58,807 nucleotides of DNA from a virus (IMGVR_UViG_3300005332_000001:1-58807), one strand, 5' to 3'. Positions 5,570-57,749 are shown, numbered from the stretch's first letter. Made by a program: numbers and translations. The notes: generated from the sequence alone by a model not told the origin.

Positions 5570-5922
5570 GCCTGTTCTTCCTCCTCGCTCAGCACTTTAT
5601 CCAGTGCGAGCCGTATATCTTCCAGCACATCATGATCCTGGCACCACTTGGCCAGCAGCGCCTTTACATCCTCGCCCAGCGGTGCCGCCAGTTCTTCTGC
5701 CGTGAATGGCACGCTCGGATCAAGCGGCGCCTTTACATCCTCGCCCAGCGGCGCCGCCAATTCTTCTGCCGTGAATGGCACGCTCGGATCAAGCGGCGCG
5801 GACCTCCACTCGCTGCATACCATCCAGGCGGCGAGGATCATGATGGCCAGCAGCGCCAGCGGAACCCACCAGTCGAGCAAGAACACGCCGATCGACAGCA
5901 GCGCGTTGAAAAGAAATTCCAT
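5566..5922 (-). CDS. Membrane protein with internal 23-aa duplication
   Basis: Hydrophobic N-terminus; APLDPSVPFTAEELAAPLGEDVK x2. Confidence 0.75.
   Translation of the reverse strand: MEFLFNALLSIGVFLLDWWVPLALLAIMILAAWMVCSEWRSAPLDPSVPFTAEELAAPLGEDVKAPLDPSVPFTAEELAAPLGEDVKALLAKWCQDHDVLEDIRLALDKVLSEEEEQA
5658..5799. repeat. 69-bp in-frame tandem duplication (2 copies)
   Basis: Copies start at 5658 and 5727 and differ at 2 positions. Confidence 0.95.
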
Positions 5923-26889: not shown

Positions 26890-27114
26890 ATGGCCAATAA
26901 CTATCCCCCAATTCCGCCAGAATTTGAAAAGTTTGCTCGTTGGCTTGAGACGCCAGAACCGTGTAGCCGCCTTTATCCGAGCTCGTGCAATGGCGTGGCT
27001 ATCATGCGTATGGGGTTTTCACAAGGAGAGTATCCGCTGTGCAAAGGGTGCATGCGGGCCATGAGTGAACAAATAAACAATGTCCTTGATGGGCTGCCAC
27101 CGGGCGAGGGATGA
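26890..27114 (+). CDS. Small Cys-containing protein
   Basis: GAGGA RBS; LCKGC. Confidence 0.65.
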   Translation: MANNYPPIPPEFEKFARWLETPEPCSRLYPSSCNGVAIMRMGFSQGEYPLCKGCMRAMSEQINNVLDGLPPGEG

Positions 27115-27117
27115 GCG

Positions 27118-27396
27118 ATGCTGTTCTATGTATGCCCAACCTGCGGGCGCTGGCAGGATGTGAGTTTCGTCAAGGCCATATCGGATGTGTTTGCCAGCGT
27201 GGGCAAGGCGCTCAACCAGCCGCCACAGGAACAACTTGGCTATCCCTGCCCTGCTGGCCACGGACTCATGGTGGCAGTTCAGCCAACGGACCGGGTGTAT
27301 GTGCGAGCTGGCGTGATCGAATCGACGCCGGATGAGCAGGAGCGCGCACTCGACGAGATCGCGCAGTTGAGCCAGGATTTGGGATTGTATGACTAA
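27118..27396 (+). CDS. Small Zn-ribbon protein
   Basis: CPTCG...CPAGH. Confidence 0.65.
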   Translation: MLFYVCPTCGRWQDVSFVKAISDVFASVGKALNQPPQEQLGYPCPAGHGLMVAVQPTDRVYVRAGVIESTPDEQERALDEIAQLSQDLGLYD

Positions 27397-27404
27397 ATAC
27401 ACAG

Positions 27405-27413
27405 TGCTATACT
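27405..27413 (+). promoter_or_regulatory. Extended -10 promoter for ncRNA locus
   Basis: TG-C-TATACT ending 8 nt before the cloverleaf. Confidence 0.55.
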
Positions 27414-27421
27414 CGCAACTA

Positions 27422-27507
27422 CGGGGAGTAGCTTAGGCAGCAGAGCGCAGGGCGCGCGCGGATAACAATGAGTCCCTGAGAGCTGGGTGCAAGTCCTGGC
27501 TCCCCGA
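27422..27507 (+). tRNA. tRNA-like cloverleaf with 21-nt anticodon loop (pseudo-tRNA or mimic)
   Basis: Acceptor CGGGGAG/CTCCCCG, U8A9, D stem GCTT/GAGC, stem CAGGG/CCCTG, T arm CTGGG-TGCAAGT-CCTGG; no CCA. Confidence 0.7.
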
Positions 27508-27509
27508 TT

Positions 27510-27623
27510 GATACCGGGGCGGATCTCGCTCGGATAGCGAGAGGAAGAGGCCGCCGTGCCTTGAATAAATTATAGGATGGAGACGTTCTCAGTGATGAGG
27601 ATGGAGTAGAGCACCTGGCACGC
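27510..27623 (+). ncRNA. Candidate structured small RNA
   Basis: TCTCGCT/AGCGAGA, GGCGG/CCGCC, CGTGCC/GGCACG stems; 15-nt identity with 42187-42201. Confidence 0.5.
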
Positions 27624-27660
27624 AAAACCGCTGGGCTAGTTGTTCCCCAGCGGTTTCTTG
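27624..27660. terminator. Bidirectional terminator
   Basis: AAACCGCTGGG...CCCAGCGGTTT. Confidence 0.8.
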
Positions 27661-27687
27661 TTACCCATTGTGCTATCTGGATTGGCT

Positions 27688-28155
27688 CTATTGGTGCAGT
27701 TGATCCTCTTCTTTGCGGTTGCATCGATGCTCAACCATGTTTATTCCCCATTCTCCAACAGGCTGAAAACATGGTAATAGGATTATTTGTAAATCTTCAT
27801 CGTCAACTTTGTCCTCCAGCCATGTTTTGTCCTCTGCACTCAGACAATCGGCAACACGGAGAAAGGTATCTTTGATACCAGATACTTCTTCTCCGTAGTA
27901 TGCATGTAAAAACAAGTCATCCGCTGAGCAAATGTCTAAGTCATGATAGAACATTGTAGCGTATTCCAGAATTGTCTGAGAAGCTTTCTCGTTTGCCATG
28001 ATAGAGCGGTAAATTGAGTGGAAGCGACGTGAAAGCTCATTCATCCATTCAGGAGGTGAGTAACGTGTAGTTGTAAGTGCCTTGTCTATCGCTTGTTCAT
28101 TTGGTTTGACTGTGTAGTGGTGCTGAACAATAAATTCAGTTTCGATGAGTGTCAT
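27688..28155 (-). CDS. AT-rich hypothetical protein (moron-like)
   Basis: AAAGGAG RBS before ATG 28155. Confidence 0.7.
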   Translation of the reverse strand: MTLIETEFIVQHHYTVKPNEQAIDKALTTTRYSPPEWMNELSRRFHSIYRSIMANEKASQTILEYATMFYHDLDICSADDLFLHAYYGEEVSGIKDTFLRVADCLSAEDKTWLEDKVDDEDLQIILLPCFQPVGEWGINMVEHRCNRKEEDQLHQ

Positions 28156-28174
28156 ACTGACTCCTTTGTCCTTT

Positions 28175-29137
28175 TTATATGGCGAGAAACGTCCCGCTCG
28201 ACGCGTCAGGGCGCGCATGGCTGTATTTATTGGTGGTTGTCAGGCTCTTGTGACCCAGCGTATCGCGAACCAGGGTAACAGGTGCGCCGCGATCCAGGGA
28301 ATGGGAGCCGTGGGCATGCCTGAACCAGTGAGGCGAGACACGCGAGCGGATAACGACTTCGCCCTCCTTATTTGTTTCTCGGTACACCTCGACACCCGCC
28401 CTGATGGCCGCTTCCTCGACAATCCGATTGACCTGGCTGCGATCAAGGCGCCCGCCATTACTCTTTTTGCGTGACTGAAAAACGATCCCCATAGGGTCAT
28501 TGCCCCGGATTTCCAGGAGCGCCGCATAGGCCGCTGGCTTAATTAGCACCTCGCGGCTTTTTCTCCCTTTGCCAAAAAAGTGGACCTGTCCGTGTCCCTT
28601 TACCTTGCCGTCGCCAACATCCTGCCAGGTGAGCGCACACGCTTCAGAGACGCGCGCCCCAGCTGCGTACAGCAGATACAGCAGGGCGCGGTTCCTGGGG
28701 TCAGTTTCAAGCGCAATGATGCGCAGCACCTCAGCCTCGCTCATAATCCTGGCTGCCAGGTGATCCTCGACTTTGGGGGCACGCAAAGCCGCGCCCACAT
28801 TAAAGGTGGTGTAACCAGCTTTATGGCAAAAGGTGAGCAGGGATTTCACCGCACTAATCTTGCGCGCCTGGGTCGCTTCTGCCAGGGGCGTCAGGGATGC
28901 GGCGAACTGCTGAAGCTGGAGCAGATTCAGTTCCTGGAGCGGCGTATGCCCGGTGAACGCTGCCAGCGCGGCTATATCGCGTGTGTAGACCTCAGTAGTT
29001 GAGGCGGGCCGCTGTGCCAACCACATGGCTATCACTACCTCGTCAGTCGCACCAGGGGGCAGCGTGGTATTGACGCGATCATTCACCAAAGCGGGCAAGG
29101 TTTCCGGTTTTCTGCTTTTGCGAGAGCGAAACAGCAT
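28175..29137 (-). CDS. XerC/D-like tyrosine recombinase (resolvase type)
   Basis: RNRALLYLLYAAGARVSE; GKGRKSR; SPHWFRHAH; TLGHKSLTTTNKY. Confidence 0.93.
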   Translation of the reverse strand: MLFRSRKSRKPETLPALVNDRVNTTLPPGATDEVVIAMWLAQRPASTTEVYTRDIAALAAFTGHTPLQELNLLQLQQFAASLTPLAEATQARKISAVKSLLTFCHKAGYTTFNVGAALRAPKVEDHLAARIMSEAEVLRIIALETDPRNRALLYLLYAAGARVSEACALTWQDVGDGKVKGHGQVHFFGKGRKSREVLIKPAAYAALLEIRGNDPMGIVFQSRKKSNGGRLDRSQVNRIVEEAAIRAGVEVYRETNKEGEVVIRSRVSPHWFRHAHGSHSLDRGAPVTLVRDTLGHKSLTTTNKYSHARPDASSGTFLAI

Positions 29138-29153
29138 CAAACAACTTCCTTTC

Positions 29154-29183
29154 AATACAACAAAACGACACTTCTGTTGTATT
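29154..29183. other. dif/lox-like recombination site
   Basis: AATACAACAAAA-CGACAC-TTCTGTTGTATT: 12-bp arms (11/12), 6-bp spacer, next to recombinase start. Confidence 0.65.
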
Positions 29184-29275: not shown

Positions 29276-29494
29276 ATGCTCTGCCAGGACACCGATAAGC
29301 GCATGGAAGCGATACATATCCCCAGCGAAACCATTCTGCTTGCTCAGAAGATGCAGCGTATAGTCGGTGTGATCACTGATGAGAATAAAGACGGCAATGG
29401 TGAAATCATCTTTAAGCTAAAAGTTGCTGGTGGAAAAATTAGTCGGGTCCTAGATTTCGCTGGTAAATGGTTTCCTGGGAATAAGAAGAAGTAG
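29276..29494 (+). CDS. Small leader protein (DUF2292/YezD-like)
   Basis: GNGEIIFKLKVAGGKISRV pattern; first ORF of late transcript. Confidence 0.6.
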   Translation: MLCQDTDKRMEAIHIPSETILLAQKMQRIVGVITDENKDGNGEIIFKLKVAGGKISRVLDFAGKWFPGNKKK

Positions 29495-29496
29495 CC

Positions 29497-29573
29497 GACA
29501 AGCAGCCTTCTGGGCCAAGCGGGCGTAAACAAAACAAAGTCGTTGACGAGCAGCCTTCTGGGCCAAGCGGACG
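29497..29573 (+). repeat. Two 29-bp direct repeats (48-bp period)
   Basis: GACRAGCAGCCTTCTGGGCCAAGCGGRCG at 29497 and 29545. Confidence 0.95.
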
Positions 29574-38117: not shown

Positions 38118-38124
38118 AAATGAT

Positions 38125-38195
38125 GATCTTTTATACCTTGTCCTGAGCACCGGCCACGTGTCCGATGTTCTGGAGAGGGTGATGGGAGATAGAGC
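38125..38195 (+). promoter_or_regulatory. RBS-sequestering hairpin, copy 1 (capsid 5' UTR)
   Basis: 55/71 identical to 42167-42236 with four compensatory pairs. Confidence 0.8.
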
Positions 38196-39122
38196 ATGTC
38201 GCTCAACAATTTTATACCCCAGATTTGGGCCGATACCCTTCTGCCCGCTCTGCGCCTGAATCTGGTCTACGGCAATCTTTTCAACGACGATTACCAGGGC
38301 CAGATTGAGAAGATGGGAGACACGGTGAAGATCAACGCCATCGGCGATATCACCGTGAGCAACTACACAAAAGATACCGACCTGAACCCACCCCAGGCGC
38401 TCACAGACGCTCAATCGATGTTGGTCATTAACCAGGCCAAATATTACAACTTCGACGTTGATGACGTTGACGCGGCACAGAGCAGCGTGAATGTCATGAC
38501 CGAAGCCATGTCCTGGGCCGCGTACAAGATCGCGCTGGGCATGGATCAATTCTATGCCGGGTATTATACCGACGCGCTGGTCGCCAACCTCGTCGGTTCC
38601 TCTGGCTCTCCAGTCGTGCCGCAGGCCGCCACTCAGGCCAATATTGGCGGCGGCCAGACCGTGTATGACTACCTGGTCATCCTCGGCCAATTCCTCACGC
38701 AGGCCGGCGTCCCCAAGAAAGGCCGCTGGGCAGTGCTGCCACCGTGGGTCCGCGTCCTCCTGCTCCAGGATATCCGTTTTACCTCATTTAACACGCCTGA
38801 GGCGCGATTGACCATCACCAGCGGCAAGCTGGACGCTTCTGCCGGTATGGCGACCGATGCCTATCTCGGGCAGATCGACGGGATGGATTGCTACGAGAGC
38901 GTCAACGCCCCGCACCTCGGCGGCACGGTCGGCGCGACGGGCTCCCAGGATGTCGTGATGGCTGGCCACCGGATGGCGCTCACCAAGGCCGAGGGCATCA
39001 ACAAGGTCGAGGCTTATCGCCCGCCCTACCGCTTCTCGGATGCCGTGAAAGGTCTCGCATTGTACGGCGCGAAGACCGTGCGCCCGTATGCATTGGCCGT
39101 CGCGTACCTACAACACCCGTAA
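38196..39122 (+). CDS. Major capsid protein
   Basis: NNFIPQIWA; GDTVKI; FDVDDVDAAQS; FSDAVKGLALYGAKTVRP. Confidence 0.93.
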   Translation: MSLNNFIPQIWADTLLPALRLNLVYGNLFNDDYQGQIEKMGDTVKINAIGDITVSNYTKDTDLNPPQALTDAQSMLVINQAKYYNFDVDDVDAAQSSVNVMTEAMSWAAYKIALGMDQFYAGYYTDALVANLVGSSGSPVVPQAATQANIGGGQTVYDYLVILGQFLTQAGVPKKGRWAVLPPWVRVLLLQDIRFTSFNTPEARLTITSGKLDASAGMATDAYLGQIDGMDCYESVNAPHLGGTVGATGSQDVVMAGHRMALTKAEGINKVEAYRPPYRFSDAVKGLALYGAKTVRPYALAVAYLQHP

Positions 39123-42157: not shown

Positions 42158-42166
42158 CAACTTACC

Positions 42167-42236
42167 GATCTTTTGTATCTCGGCCTGAGCACCTGGCACG
42201 CTCAGATGTTCTGGCGGGGATGATGGAGGATACATC
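42167..42236 (+). promoter_or_regulatory. RBS-sequestering hairpin, copy 2 (tail tube 5' UTR)
   Basis: Paralog of 38125-38195; GGAGG lies in the paired 3' arm. Confidence 0.8.
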
Positions 42237-42638
42237 ATGGGTAACGCAGTTGCCGGTTATGGCGGAAGCGTCAAAATCGGAGCGAACACTGTTGCCAACG
42301 TCAAGCAGTGGGAGCTGCCACTTGGCGCCGACCTCTACGACGTGTCAGTCCTGGGTAACCAGTGGAAGCAATATGTACCTGGTTTGCTCGGCAGTGACGC
42401 CAAGATCGACGCATTCCTTGATCTGACCGATACCAACGGCCAGGTCGCGATGCAAACAGCTATCCTCAATGGCACATCCGTCTCGCTTACCCTGCTCACG
42501 TCAACGGCAGGTGGTGCCACGCAGCACACCTATGCAGGAACGGCGTTTGTGAAAGGCATTGACTATAAAGATCCTGTCAATGCCCCGGAAGAAGTCTCGC
42601 TCACGCTCGCGTTCAGCGGCGCGATCACCTACACCTAG
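42237..42638 (+). CDS. Major tail (tube) protein
   Basis: QWEL..DLYDVS..WKQYVPGL; YAGTAFV; position. Confidence 0.85.
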   Translation: MGNAVAGYGGSVKIGANTVANVKQWELPLGADLYDVSVLGNQWKQYVPGLLGSDAKIDAFLDLTDTNGQVAMQTAILNGTSVSLTLLTSTAGGATQHTYAGTAFVKGIDYKDPVNAPEEVSLTLAFSGAITYT

Positions 42639-56340: not shown

Positions 56341-56390
56341 TTGTGCTATACTGTACACGTTCGGGATCTGGGGTAACGAAGGGAACCCGC

Positions 56391-57749
56391 TCATCTGCGC
56401 GCAAGATGAGAAAGCCACGTTCGAGCCGTGGGGACCCGACTCGCCGCGTTCTCACCCGGCCAGCATACACACTCTGCCGCTGTTGGCTGGCCGGACTTGC
56501 GCGGTGCACAGAAAAGCCGCCTCGACTTGCGGAAGAAGACCACATCCCCGGCCAGCACGCTTCCACACAATAGCAGCAAGGGCACTATCTTGCTGACCAC
56601 CATCCAACGCCAGGCGACCAGTCCCGGATGGAACCCGAGATGATTATTAAAGCTCACGTCAACATGGAAGAGCCGCAAGAGTAGGAAGCAACTGGGCAAA
56701 CAGGTGAGCAGGATGCAAATGCGTGCTGTTCTCGTTTGAAACGCCGGACAGAAAACCACGCAGATCGCCAGGACGTAGGCAAGCGTGCTCCAATCATACT
56801 CATAGACCAAATTGTAAAAGAGCAAAAAATACGCGATGGAGAAGAAAATCGATGTAGCCAGCGGCGTTCGTTTGCTCGCGCTCAGCAGCAACACCAACGC
56901 CAGGGCTGCGTATTGGATGGCCTGGTAGGCCGTGTTTGGCCATCGGAAGGAATAGCGCAAGAGCGCATTGAGTGTCATGATTTGATCCGGCCCAGGAGAG
57001 TCTGGGTGAAAAAATTCTTTCACGAGGTTGTTGATATAGTACATGCCACTTTTATTGAGCAAGAATGGCCAGGTAGCAAGCACAACCAGCGCGAGGGCAA
57101 ACAGCGCGAGACGCCAGTGGCGTTTGAACACCAGCGCTGGCACAAAGAGCAAGCCAACTGGCTTCACCAGGATGCTTGCCGCATAGAAGAGGATAATTCC
57201 TAGTTGCGATCGCTTCTGCATCATCAGGAAGAGTAGCAGGCAGGCATTGAACACCAAATGATATTGGCCCGCCGCCAGCTCCGCGTACTCATCGAGACTC
57301 GCCAGCAGGATGAACGTGGCGAGCTGTCCATATTTGTATCCGCGCACCTGCTTCCAGAAGAAAGAAATCAGCAGGAGATCCAGCAACAGCTTGATGAGAA
57401 TCCAGGCCGCGTAGGAGTCCTGGGGAGCGAGCAGCATCAGAACCGTGCCTAACACAATTGTGAAGAGTGGACTGTACACGTTCTTATTCACGGCGTAGTG
57501 CAGGGCGGGCGCATAGACCTGCCCGCTTGGCAGCGCCACTCCCGTTAAGCTGCCGCCATGCCACCAGGACCAGGCACCACGCACCACCTGGAAGAAGTCG
57601 ATACCTGGGTCAGCATAGTGGGTAGAGGAACCAGAAAAAAACACATCTAGCCAGCCAGTCCAAAGTGCTGAGACATAAAACAGCACGTGAATGGCGATCC
57701 CTACATAGAGCAAAAGATACGTGTGTATATGTAAAACTACAGATTTCAT
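56391..57749 (-). CDS. GT-C fold membrane glycosyltransferase (GT87/DUF2029-like), moron
   Basis: Polytopic; IDFFQV; YSPLF; GQY; LVKP; YEYD. Confidence 0.8.
   Translation of the reverse strand: MKSVVLHIHTYLLLYVGIAIHVLFYVSALWTGWLDVFFSGSSTHYADPGIDFFQVVRGAWSWWHGGSLTGVALPSGQVYAPALHYAVNKNVYSPLFTIVLGTVLMLLAPQDSYAAWILIKLLLDLLLISFFWKQVRGYKYGQLATFILLASLDEYAELAAGQYHLVFNACLLLFLMMQKRSQLGIILFYAASILVKPVGLLFVPALVFKRHWRLALFALALVVLATWPFLLNKSGMYYINNLVKEFFHPDSPGPDQIMTLNALLRYSFRWPNTAYQAIQYAALALVLLLSASKRTPLATSIFFSIAYFLLFYNLVYEYDWSTLAYVLAICVVFCPAFQTRTARICILLTCLPSCFLLLRLFHVDVSFNNHLGFHPGLVAWRWMVVSKIVPLLLLCGSVLAGDVVFFRKSRRLFCAPRKSGQPTAAECVCWPGENAASRVPTARTWLSHLARR

Follow-up and report, generated by a model that had tools for sequence, protein, structure and literature searches.

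A candidate non-coding RNA gene derived from a proline transfer RNA, with a short patch of a late-gene leader hairpin, in the integrase region of a temperate phage

The virus record IMGVR_UViG_3300005332_000001 of IMG/VR, analysed here in its whole length (58,807 bases, hereafter the window), belongs to a temperate, siphovirus-like phage, and a gene-free gap of 291 nucleotides (nt) at 27397-27687 harbours the segment under study, 27510-27623. On its left the gap is bordered by a plus-strand gene for a zinc-ribbon-like protein of 92 amino acids (aa), on its right by a convergent minus-strand operon, and the sole open reading frame (ORF) running across it is an antisense frame rich in arginine, serine and proline that has no family match in PHROG. 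An earlier note on this DNA had placed the segment between a promoter plus transfer RNA (tRNA)-like leader and a terminator, and had proposed that it encodes a small RNA which reproduces, in permuted order, a hairpin from the 5' untranslated regions (UTRs) of the late genes, either as a decoy for a hairpin-binding factor or as a trans-acting RNA. A promoter-like site, a tRNA-shaped 5' domain and a terminator could all be located around the segment (Table 1), and the 5' domain proved to be recognisable as a relative of proline tRNA (tRNA-Pro).

Application of ARAGORN in a relaxed setting, with introns allowed, drew a full cloverleaf at 27422-27507 containing a 14-nt "intron". As the same setting gave 11 matches in 40 shuffles, i.e. 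0.275 false matches per shuffled window, a match within the 291-nt gap would be expected by chance about 0.0014 times. Combining this drawing with manual numbering revealed that all 21 stem pairs are intact, being either standard or G.U pairs: the acceptor stem has 7 base pairs (bp), the D stem 4 bp, and the anticodon and T stems 5 bp each, two of the T-stem pairs being G.U. The cloverleaf has C1:G72 in its acceptor stem and A as the discriminator base, both of which are identity marks of bacterial tRNA-Pro. Elsewhere in the window, relaxed ARAGORN also drew a tRNA-Cys-like fold with a 4-nt insert at 56362-56440, which lies across long ORFs of both strands and is probably spurious.

A covariance model of the single phage sequence with its cloverleaf structure (model R2) was searched against 101 genomes of one bacterial family, namely the family of a genome bin that contains a related capsid gene, and matched in four of them, in every case a tRNA-Pro(GGG) gene of 72-77 nt (29.5-51.8 bits); the conclusion is the same if G020, the unpublished genome among the four, is left aside. 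In 151 genomes of the phylum, 21 matched, and the best eight loci that were checked comprised six tRNA-Pro genes (GGG, CGG and UGG) and two tRNA-Met(CAT) genes. Overall, the host tRNA-Pro genes scored 29.5-55.4 bits. These matches, together with the first pair, the discriminator base and the 62-66% identity to four tRNA-Pro(GGG) genes, are what the phage domain has in common with bacterial and phage tRNA-Pro, GGG, CGG and UGG genes being matched at up to 55 bits. The domain is a diverged tRNA-Pro, and its descent from such a gene gives the "tRNA-like leader" of the earlier note a definite identity.

In the positions required for decoding, the domain departs from tRNA-Pro. Where host tRNA-Pro genes have 7 nt in the anticodon loop, the phage copy has the 21-nt loop CGCGCGCGGAUAACAAUGAGU, with 13-14 nt placed as an insertion by the alignment, and neither U33 nor an anticodon in register. 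In the elbow, which in tRNAs includes a contact of G18 with U55, the D loop has A in place of G18 and the T loop (UGCAAGU) has G in place of U55, while G19 and C56 are retained. CCA is not encoded by the phage copy; three complete host tRNA-Pro genes encode it, and the fourth host locus stops before its 3' end. Because of the enlarged anticodon loop, the missing U33, the replacement of both G18 and U55 and the lack of an encoded CCA, the cloverleaf is incapable of decoding. An archaeal-type bulge-helix-bulge intron was considered for the 21-nt loop and rejected, as no complementary 4-bp helix is present.

The promoter-like site in front of this domain shares bases with the stop codon of the 92-aa gene that precedes it. 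Downstream of the cloverleaf, the trailer begins with a stem-loop domain that is predicted to fold at -19.7 kcal/mol over 27512-27560; searches gave nothing in favour of the idea that this start derives from a second tRNA, as a piece of it. Further on, the trailer contains AGACGTTC at 27581-27588 and two copies of AGGATGGAG (27574-27582 and 27598-27606), as the earlier note had observed. A 10-codon ORF at 27577-27609 was discarded for lack of a usable ribosome-binding site. The unit closes with a stem followed by a UUUCUUGUU run on the plus strand and by UUUUG on the minus strand (-18.8 and -26.8 kcal/mol, the latter for the minus strand), an inverted repeat that is missing from the consensus scan list owing to its 10-nt loop and to which Rfam, at E <= 10 on the gap, gave only chance matches of microRNA hairpins. 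This terminator is common to the RNA unit and to the convergent operon of the 176-aa and integrase genes and, with a U run on either strand, should end both. The integrase mRNA was also considered as a target of the RNA, 27617-27631 being complementary to 28778-28792 in 14 of 15 positions, and was rejected since this is chance level (E 1.2). Short stretches of the RNA locus find several matches in a 48-nt part of the integrase gene, 28745-28792, the 14-of-15 match to 27617-27631 among them, and each of these, taken alone, is at chance level (E about 1).

Table 1. Coordinates of the RNA locus, the late-gene leaders and the neighbouring genes in the window.
Feature	Position	Strand	Details
Promoter-like site	27385..27413	+	-35 TTGTAT 27385-27390, 17-nt spacer, extended -10 TGcTATACT 27405-27413; read from sequence
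tRNA-Pro-derived cloverleaf, 86 nt	27422..27507	+	relaxed ARAGORN; model R2; 62-66% identity to four tRNA-Pro(GGG) genes
21-nt loop CGCGCGCGGAUAACAAUGAGU replacing the 7-nt anticodon loop	27453..27473	+	no U33 (position 33 = G), no in-register proline anticodon
Stem-loop domain of the 3' trailer	27514..27558	+	outer G+C-rich stem around hairpin UCUCGCU-CGGAU-AGCGAGA; predicted
Two AGGAUGGAG copies flanking CGUUCUCA	27574..27606	+	copies 27574-27582 and 27598-27606; includes AGACGTTC
15-mer	27609..27623	+	identical to the tail-tube UTR hairpin in its 5' apical strand and the start of its loop
Intrinsic terminator	27624..27665	both	11-bp perfect stem 27625-27635/27646-27656; inverted repeat 100% complementary
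Capsid 5' UTR hairpin	38124..38196	+	-35.0 kcal/mol, z -3.68; 79.9 bits; start codon 38196
Tail-tube 5' UTR hairpin	42166..42237	+	-30.6 kcal/mol, z -3.03, 0/200 shuffles; 85.6 bits; start codon 42237
Convergent operon	27688..29155	-	176-aa gene, with recombinase gene upstream of it
176-aa protein	27688-28218	-	no family match; no IMG/VR relatives
Tyrosine recombinase, 326 aa	28175-29155	-	Phage_integrase 3.2e-26; phrog_1 9.7e-38
Second tyrosine recombinase, 343 aa	25603-26634	-	other side of the locus; Phage_integrase 1.7e-19

The sequence link between the trailer and the late genes consists of the 15-mer GAGCACCTGGCACGC, which occurs exactly at 27609-27623 and at 42187-42201, both times on the plus strand, with no additional copies in the window when up to two mismatches are allowed. 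As the earlier note had stated, the segment lies more than 10 kb from the UTR hairpins, the nearest of which (38124) is 10.5 kb away. The window contains 13 dispersed exact repeats of at least 15 nt, compared with a mean of 4.05 in 40 dinucleotide shuffles, so that a 15-mer repeat alone is unremarkable. A repeat of at least 15 nt that touches the UTR-hairpin cores was seen in 0/40 shuffles. The 12-nt core AGCACCTGGCAC occurs twice and is common to five UTR hairpins of related phages; in the trailer this family-conserved 12-mer (AGCACCUGGCAC) is exact at 27610-27621, inside the 15-mer. Since it is expected only 0.03 times per shuffled window, its copy in the trailer is probably not due to chance, and with coincidence being a very unlikely source we take the copy as real. 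The capsid leader of the same phage departs from the 15-mer at several positions. A scan of IMG/VR for the 15-mer found 67 places, none with similarity to the window in its flanks, so that all 67 are chance occurrences.

Each of the two leaders folds as one long irregular hairpin of about 70 nt, which hides the ribosome-binding site, the Shine-Dalgarno strand being taken up in the basal stem by a strand of the CUUUUGUAUCUC type; in the tail-tube hairpin the strand engaged in this way is AUCUUUUGUAUCUC, and an apical stem-loop is also present. Capsid-protein searches yielded relatives of 65-81% identity on 16 IMG/VR contigs and on one more contig in a genome bin, and the hairpin in front of the capsid gene is kept by most of these contigs. 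An alignment of 13 members has 22 consensus pairs, nine of which show compensatory changes, and its internal helix AGCAC(C)/GAUGUU, interrupted by a C.A mismatch, is conserved in sequence. A covariance model of these 13 members (model R1) detects precisely two copies in the window and in each of the two long related records, G001 (59.5 kb, completeness 85%) and G002 (48.5 kb, completeness 69%), and it also matches contigs outside its building set (L086, L095, L096, L107 and L089). No counterpart exists in Rfam. The capsid and tail-tube leaders constitute an uncatalogued RNA family with covariation, represented by 16 sequences from the window and from related contigs (L101, L104, L083-L090, L095-L097 and L107), and the leader hairpin is a genuine translational operator that something could copy. 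On contig L084 an extra member (12-80, 68.4 bits) lies about 850 nt upstream of the capsid copy, before another gene, from which it follows that the operator is not restricted to capsid and tail-tube genes. Reading TGGCAC in these leaders as part of a sigma-54 promoter was rejected, because there is no GC element at the right spacing and several family members do not have TGGCAC.

The central structural proposal of the earlier note, i.e. that the conserved helix with its C-A mismatch can form in permuted order within the gap RNA, did not survive closer inspection. The leader helix joins GAGCACC to GAUGUUC and contains one C.A mismatch, whereas in the gap GACGUUC (27582-27588) faces GAGCACC (27609-27615) with two adjacent mismatches, A.C and C.A; the U of GAUGUU, kept by 12 of 13 family members, is replaced by C in the gap (GACGUU). 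For each of the seven proposed pairs, the partition function of the 242-nt RNA gives a probability of 0.0. Instead, AGACGUUC is held in a hairpin with a GUGA loop, in which 27584-27591 pairs with 27596-27603 over 8 bp (probability 0.64-0.98, -7.8 kcal/mol), and a weaker alternative joins 27574-27579 to 27584-27589 around a GAGA loop (-4.1 kcal/mol), the alternative partners of CGUUCU being the two AGGAUGGAG copies. The 15-mer itself is likewise predicted to be engaged: when the RNA is folded at full length, the T-arm strand 27482-27490 is the partner of its core 27611-27619 (probability 0.79), and folding the trailer by itself leaves the 15-mer with a mean unpaired probability of 0.37, most of it being paired to another G-rich stretch.

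Membership of the gap RNA in the hairpin family was not borne out either. With filters off and E <= 10, R1 recovered only the two UTRs, their reverse strands and three weak matches elsewhere in the window, and none in 27397-27687; unlike the hairpin family, the gap has neither a CUUUUGUAUCUC-type strand nor a plus-strand gene downstream. Outside the 15-mer, similarity to the leaders is not significant, as equally good alignments arose in 207/2000 shuffles for the 3' half of the tail UTR and in 387/2000 for that of the capsid UTR. Pairing of the RNA with the leaders in trans, the other action suggested, produced duplexes no better than those of shuffled RNAs, which did as well or better in 248/300 and 96/300 cases, and co-folding gained just 1.6-1.8 kcal/mol and left both UTR hairpins intact. 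Given that the 15-mer does not rebuild the operator fold, any link to the late genes would act through sequence and not through a mimicked hairpin.

A further expectation was that the RNA and the UTR motif would occur together across relatives. In contrast, the RNA was found in 0/5 related records, while G001 and G002 each carry both hairpins: a DNA search with the gap gave nothing in G001 or in three shorter related records, and in G002 it gave only the two leader hairpins. The 12-mer lies only within the leaders in both long records, which share with the window only the structural module. The earlier note had named as a case against its proposal that relatives carry the UTR hairpins without this sequence and that its deletion has no effect; the first half of this is what the two long records display, although, both of them being incomplete, they do not prove that the RNA is absent. 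Of the original interpretation, then, the independent appearance of the transcription unit and the true copy of a conserved hairpin part were retained, whereas the permuted helix, the family membership, the pairing in trans and the co-occurrence were not supported. The proposed decoy role is unproven, because the copy does not refold into the hairpin and related phages are without the RNA.

For the neighbouring integrase, relatives of 36-54% identity numbered 10 in IMG/VR and 80 in metagenomes, and a tRNA within 3-4 kb was present at 0/10 of the IMG/VR loci and 0/80 of the metagenome loci. Neither the 92-aa nor the 176-aa protein has relatives in IMG/VR, and phage GenBank records gave no DNA match. 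As to a host, the capsid-protein search led to one 2.9-kb contig that is binned in a 1.2-Mb genome, and the host assignment, which depends on that single binned contig, is weak. Genomes of this putative host family and phylum all measure 0.5-2.1 Mb, and DNA searches of 61 family and 201 phylum genomes returned short chance-level matches only; five identical 15-mers in putative-host genomes sit in a conserved protein-coding gene and not in a tRNA. The closest host tRNA-Pro genes are those of 62-66% identity mentioned above, with none nearer among the 101 + 151 genomes searched of this weakly assigned host. In one genome of about 0.9 Mb (L205, at G035:C27), the last ~19 nt of tRNA-Pro(GGG), including CCA, are directly repeated ~190 nt downstream, which is the signature of an integration scar or of a small integrated element at this tRNA gene.

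From these results we tentatively favour, at somewhat less than even confidence, the interpretation that the locus is an orphan non-coding RNA gene derived from tRNA-Pro in the integrase region, whose trailer bears a patch of the late-gene operator that is genuine yet inert as a structure. The interval 27385-27665 would then be a stand-alone non-coding gene, in which the extended -10 promoter would start the RNA at about 27420-27421, 1-2 nt before the 86-nt disabled proline-tRNA cloverleaf; a 116-nt structured trailer would come next, composed of the stem-loop domain, an AU-rich linker, the GUGA-loop hairpin and the 15-mer, and the unit would stop at the intrinsic terminator held in common with the convergent integrase operon. 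The product, if transcribed, would be a tRNA-shaped accessory RNA of the integrase region, and its tRNA body, if folded into the L shape, may provide stability as well as a handle for tRNA-processing or tRNA-binding proteins. Among the sequencing runs listed, none contained this DNA, a negative that carries no weight on expression.

A number of observations weigh against this interpretation. The -35 element of the promoter is weak (3/6 match) and the site is absent from the consensus scan list. ARAGORN in its default setting makes no tRNA call, and Rfam reports no tRNA at the gathering score (RF00005 cut-off 29 bits), nor at E <= 10 on the gap; RF00005 searched alone at E <= 10 gave no match in the window, although all 14 control genomes were matched. 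The RNA as a whole folds no better than its shuffles (z -0.65), and for the 86 nt of the cloverleaf the minimum-energy fold (-35.4 kcal/mol) is 7-10 kcal/mol more stable than the cloverleaf itself (-25.7, or -28.4 when loop pairs are counted). This last point is not decisive, because many real tRNAs likewise have a cloverleaf less stable than their minimum-energy fold. The exact T-arm 22-mer occurs 0 times in IMG/VR and the exact D-arm 24-mer 0 times in JGI metagenomes, and nothing alike was found near the 90 relatives of the neighbouring integrase, R2 searches included, or in the five related phage records.

Many of the same observations would be made if the locus were a decaying relic, i.e. 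a tRNA-Pro gene, either the phage's own or captured from a host beside an integration site, which lost its anticodon loop to a 14-nt insertion and has since been drifting, with a trailer that is mere spacer, a 15-mer that arose by chance or as a scar of illegitimate recombination with the tail-tube leader, and no function. The orphan status across IMG/VR, metagenomes and relatives fits such decay, as do the failure to be called by the Rfam tRNA model and by default ARAGORN, the absence of an encoded CCA in contrast to the three complete host genes, a cloverleaf that is not the minimum-energy fold, the abundance of short repeats in the window (13 dispersed ones of at least 15 nt) and the use of tRNA-Pro(GGG) as an integration site in the L205 genome of the putative host family. 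We nevertheless regard a relic as unlikely, given that the 21 stem pairs, the promoter and the terminator are all intact, that both elbow partners are altered together, that the 12-mer core is expected just 0.03 times per shuffle, and that phage genomes seldom keep ~290 nt of useless DNA. A functional alternative retains part of the earlier idea at the level of sequence, namely that an RNA made in the lysogen exposes the AGCACCUGGCAC patch and titrates a factor, protein or RNA, by which this sequence is recognised in the leaders of the capsid and tail-tube genes, thereby modulating the opening of their hairpins. The patch is indeed the most conserved sequence of the operator family, its 12-mer is present in five UTR hairpins of relatives and a chance recurrence of it is unlikely, the locus has its own promoter-like site in the integrase region, and sponges made of tRNA 3' trailers are known in E. 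coli (3'ETS-leuZ). This possibility nonetheless appears quite unlikely: the conserved helix is not rebuilt (pair probability 0.0, two mismatches, GACGUU versus GAUGUU), R1 does not match, the patch is predicted to be mostly paired, pairing to either leader is no better than random, the capsid leader of the very same phage differs from the 15-mer at several positions, and G001 and G002 keep both operators without a third copy. A more specific version, in which a disabled proline tRNA with a trailer displaying the 12-nt operator sequence soaks up a hairpin-opening factor in the lysogen and keeps the structural proteins off until induction, is improbable; if true, such a tRNA-framed operator decoy would be a type of phage regulator so far undescribed.

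Two further explanations place the significance of the locus outside the plus-strand RNA. The tRNA-like sequence and the repeats might serve at the DNA level as an attachment site, or its remnant, for one of the flanking tyrosine recombinases, with the two AGGATGGAG copies as arm-type binding sites. The position between two recombinase genes is suggestive in this respect, a tRNA followed by a convergent integrase gene is the order found at the left junction of prophages integrated at tRNA genes, and L205 provides an integration scar at tRNA-Pro(GGG). Yet the locus has a whole cloverleaf with its own promoter and not merely the 3' part, the G55 in the T loop would spoil a rebuilt host tRNA, no identical host tRNA exists among the 101 + 151 genomes searched, 0/90 integrase relatives have a tRNA inside 3-4 kb, and Pfam detects no arm-binding domain in either recombinase, all of which makes an attachment site very improbable. 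Finally, the earlier note had pointed out that a minus-strand read-through transcript would be antisense to the UTR loop. On this view, read-through of the integrase operon would yield an RNA with a 3' end of 15 nt that is perfectly antisense to the tail-tube leader, in its apical part, and would regulate that leader. The geometry fits, with the antisense 15-mer starting right after the minus-strand UUUUG, but such an RNA would require read-through of a strong minus-strand terminator (-26.8 kcal/mol, 11-bp perfect stem), its target is buried inside a stable hairpin, the match to the capsid leader is poor and the arrangement is not conserved in relatives, so that we consider regulation of this kind extremely unlikely.

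Comparison of the candidate tRNA-Pro-derived RNA with known systems revealed partial likenesses. The stable RNAs C and D of phage T4 and the YrlA/Y RNAs also keep tRNA arms without the decoding loop, and the gap RNA, which is phage-encoded and without an Rfam match, differs from them in having no sequence relationship and in bearing a 116-nt trailer with an operator patch; no Rfam model of YrlA or Y RNA matched at E <= 10, and no TROVE domain (Rsr/Ro) was found among 39 reading frames of the window scanned against Pfam. In E. coli 3'ETS-leuZ, a tRNA 3' trailer that sponges small RNAs, a regulatory sequence likewise lies between the tRNA body and the terminator and acts by titration rather than by direct repression. 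Unlike the gap patch, which is mRNA-sense and attached to a disabled tRNA, 3'ETS-leuZ is complementary to its partners and is cut from a working tRNA operon. The immunity RNAs of P1/P7 (C4) and of P4 (CI) are prophage small RNAs that are cut from precursors by RNase P through a tRNA-like fold, and resemble the gap RNA in this processing handle and in short repeats linking them to distant mRNA leaders; theirs are complementary and act by pairing, whereas the gap repeat is direct and has no significant complementarity to the leaders. The leader hairpins at 38124-38196 and 42166-42237 find their own parallels in mom/Com of phage Mu and in the RNase III sites of T7 and lambda leaders, which are comparable as long irregular hairpins that pair the Shine-Dalgarno sequence and have a conserved internal helix, and of which the gap RNA itself, by R1, is not an example; those operators depend on an activator or on a cut, and no partner of the Com or RNase III kind was identified here. 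The portions of the literature available to us on phage tRNA-like decoys and on capsid or tail leader hairpins held nothing on point.

The conserved leader hairpins are a firmer result than the RNA, and the main interest lies in the disabled tRNA that has its own promoter and in the hairpins that hide the ribosome-binding sites of the capsid and tail-tube genes, less so in the proposed mimicry. Should the RNA be made and folded like a tRNA, it would offer a dated example, with clear tRNA-Pro ancestry, of the poorly understood phage RNAs that have a tRNA shape without decoding, and would be among the few such RNAs with their own promoter and a long trailer. The single sequence link to the leaders also raises the question of what opens the conserved capsid and tail-tube hairpins in this group of phages. 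Were the locus only a relic, the finding would be an ordinary one, and an example of a short repeat that hints at more than can be backed by evidence.

Beyond the locus and the leaders, the window encodes on the plus strand, at about 31-52 kb, the terminase, portal, scaffold, major head, tail-completion, major tail and tape-measure proteins; a GH25 lysozyme, two DNA methyltransferases, a repressor-like HTH-TPR protein and two tyrosine recombinases are also encoded in the window. The two recombinase genes have the same orientation and are separated by 1.5 kb, in which the RNA locus and three small genes are located; this stretch may be a separate mobile cassette within the phage. Just upstream of the RNA, two small cysteine-rich, zinc-ribbon-like proteins are encoded at 27118-27396 (the 92-aa protein) and 26890-27114, neither of which reaches the cut-offs of any Pfam or PHROG family; for the 92-aa protein, a Protein Atlas look-up gave only weak zinc-ribbon and nucleic-acid-binding leads (score 0.92). 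Between the integrase gene and the late genes, at 29480-29573, a 46-nt unit stands in two tandem copies that are 80% identical at a spacing of 48 nt and share 22 identical bases, and could represent a regulatory or recombination site. The early region contains a tandem duplication at 5658-5785 with a period of 69 nt and exact blocks of 25 and 39 nt.

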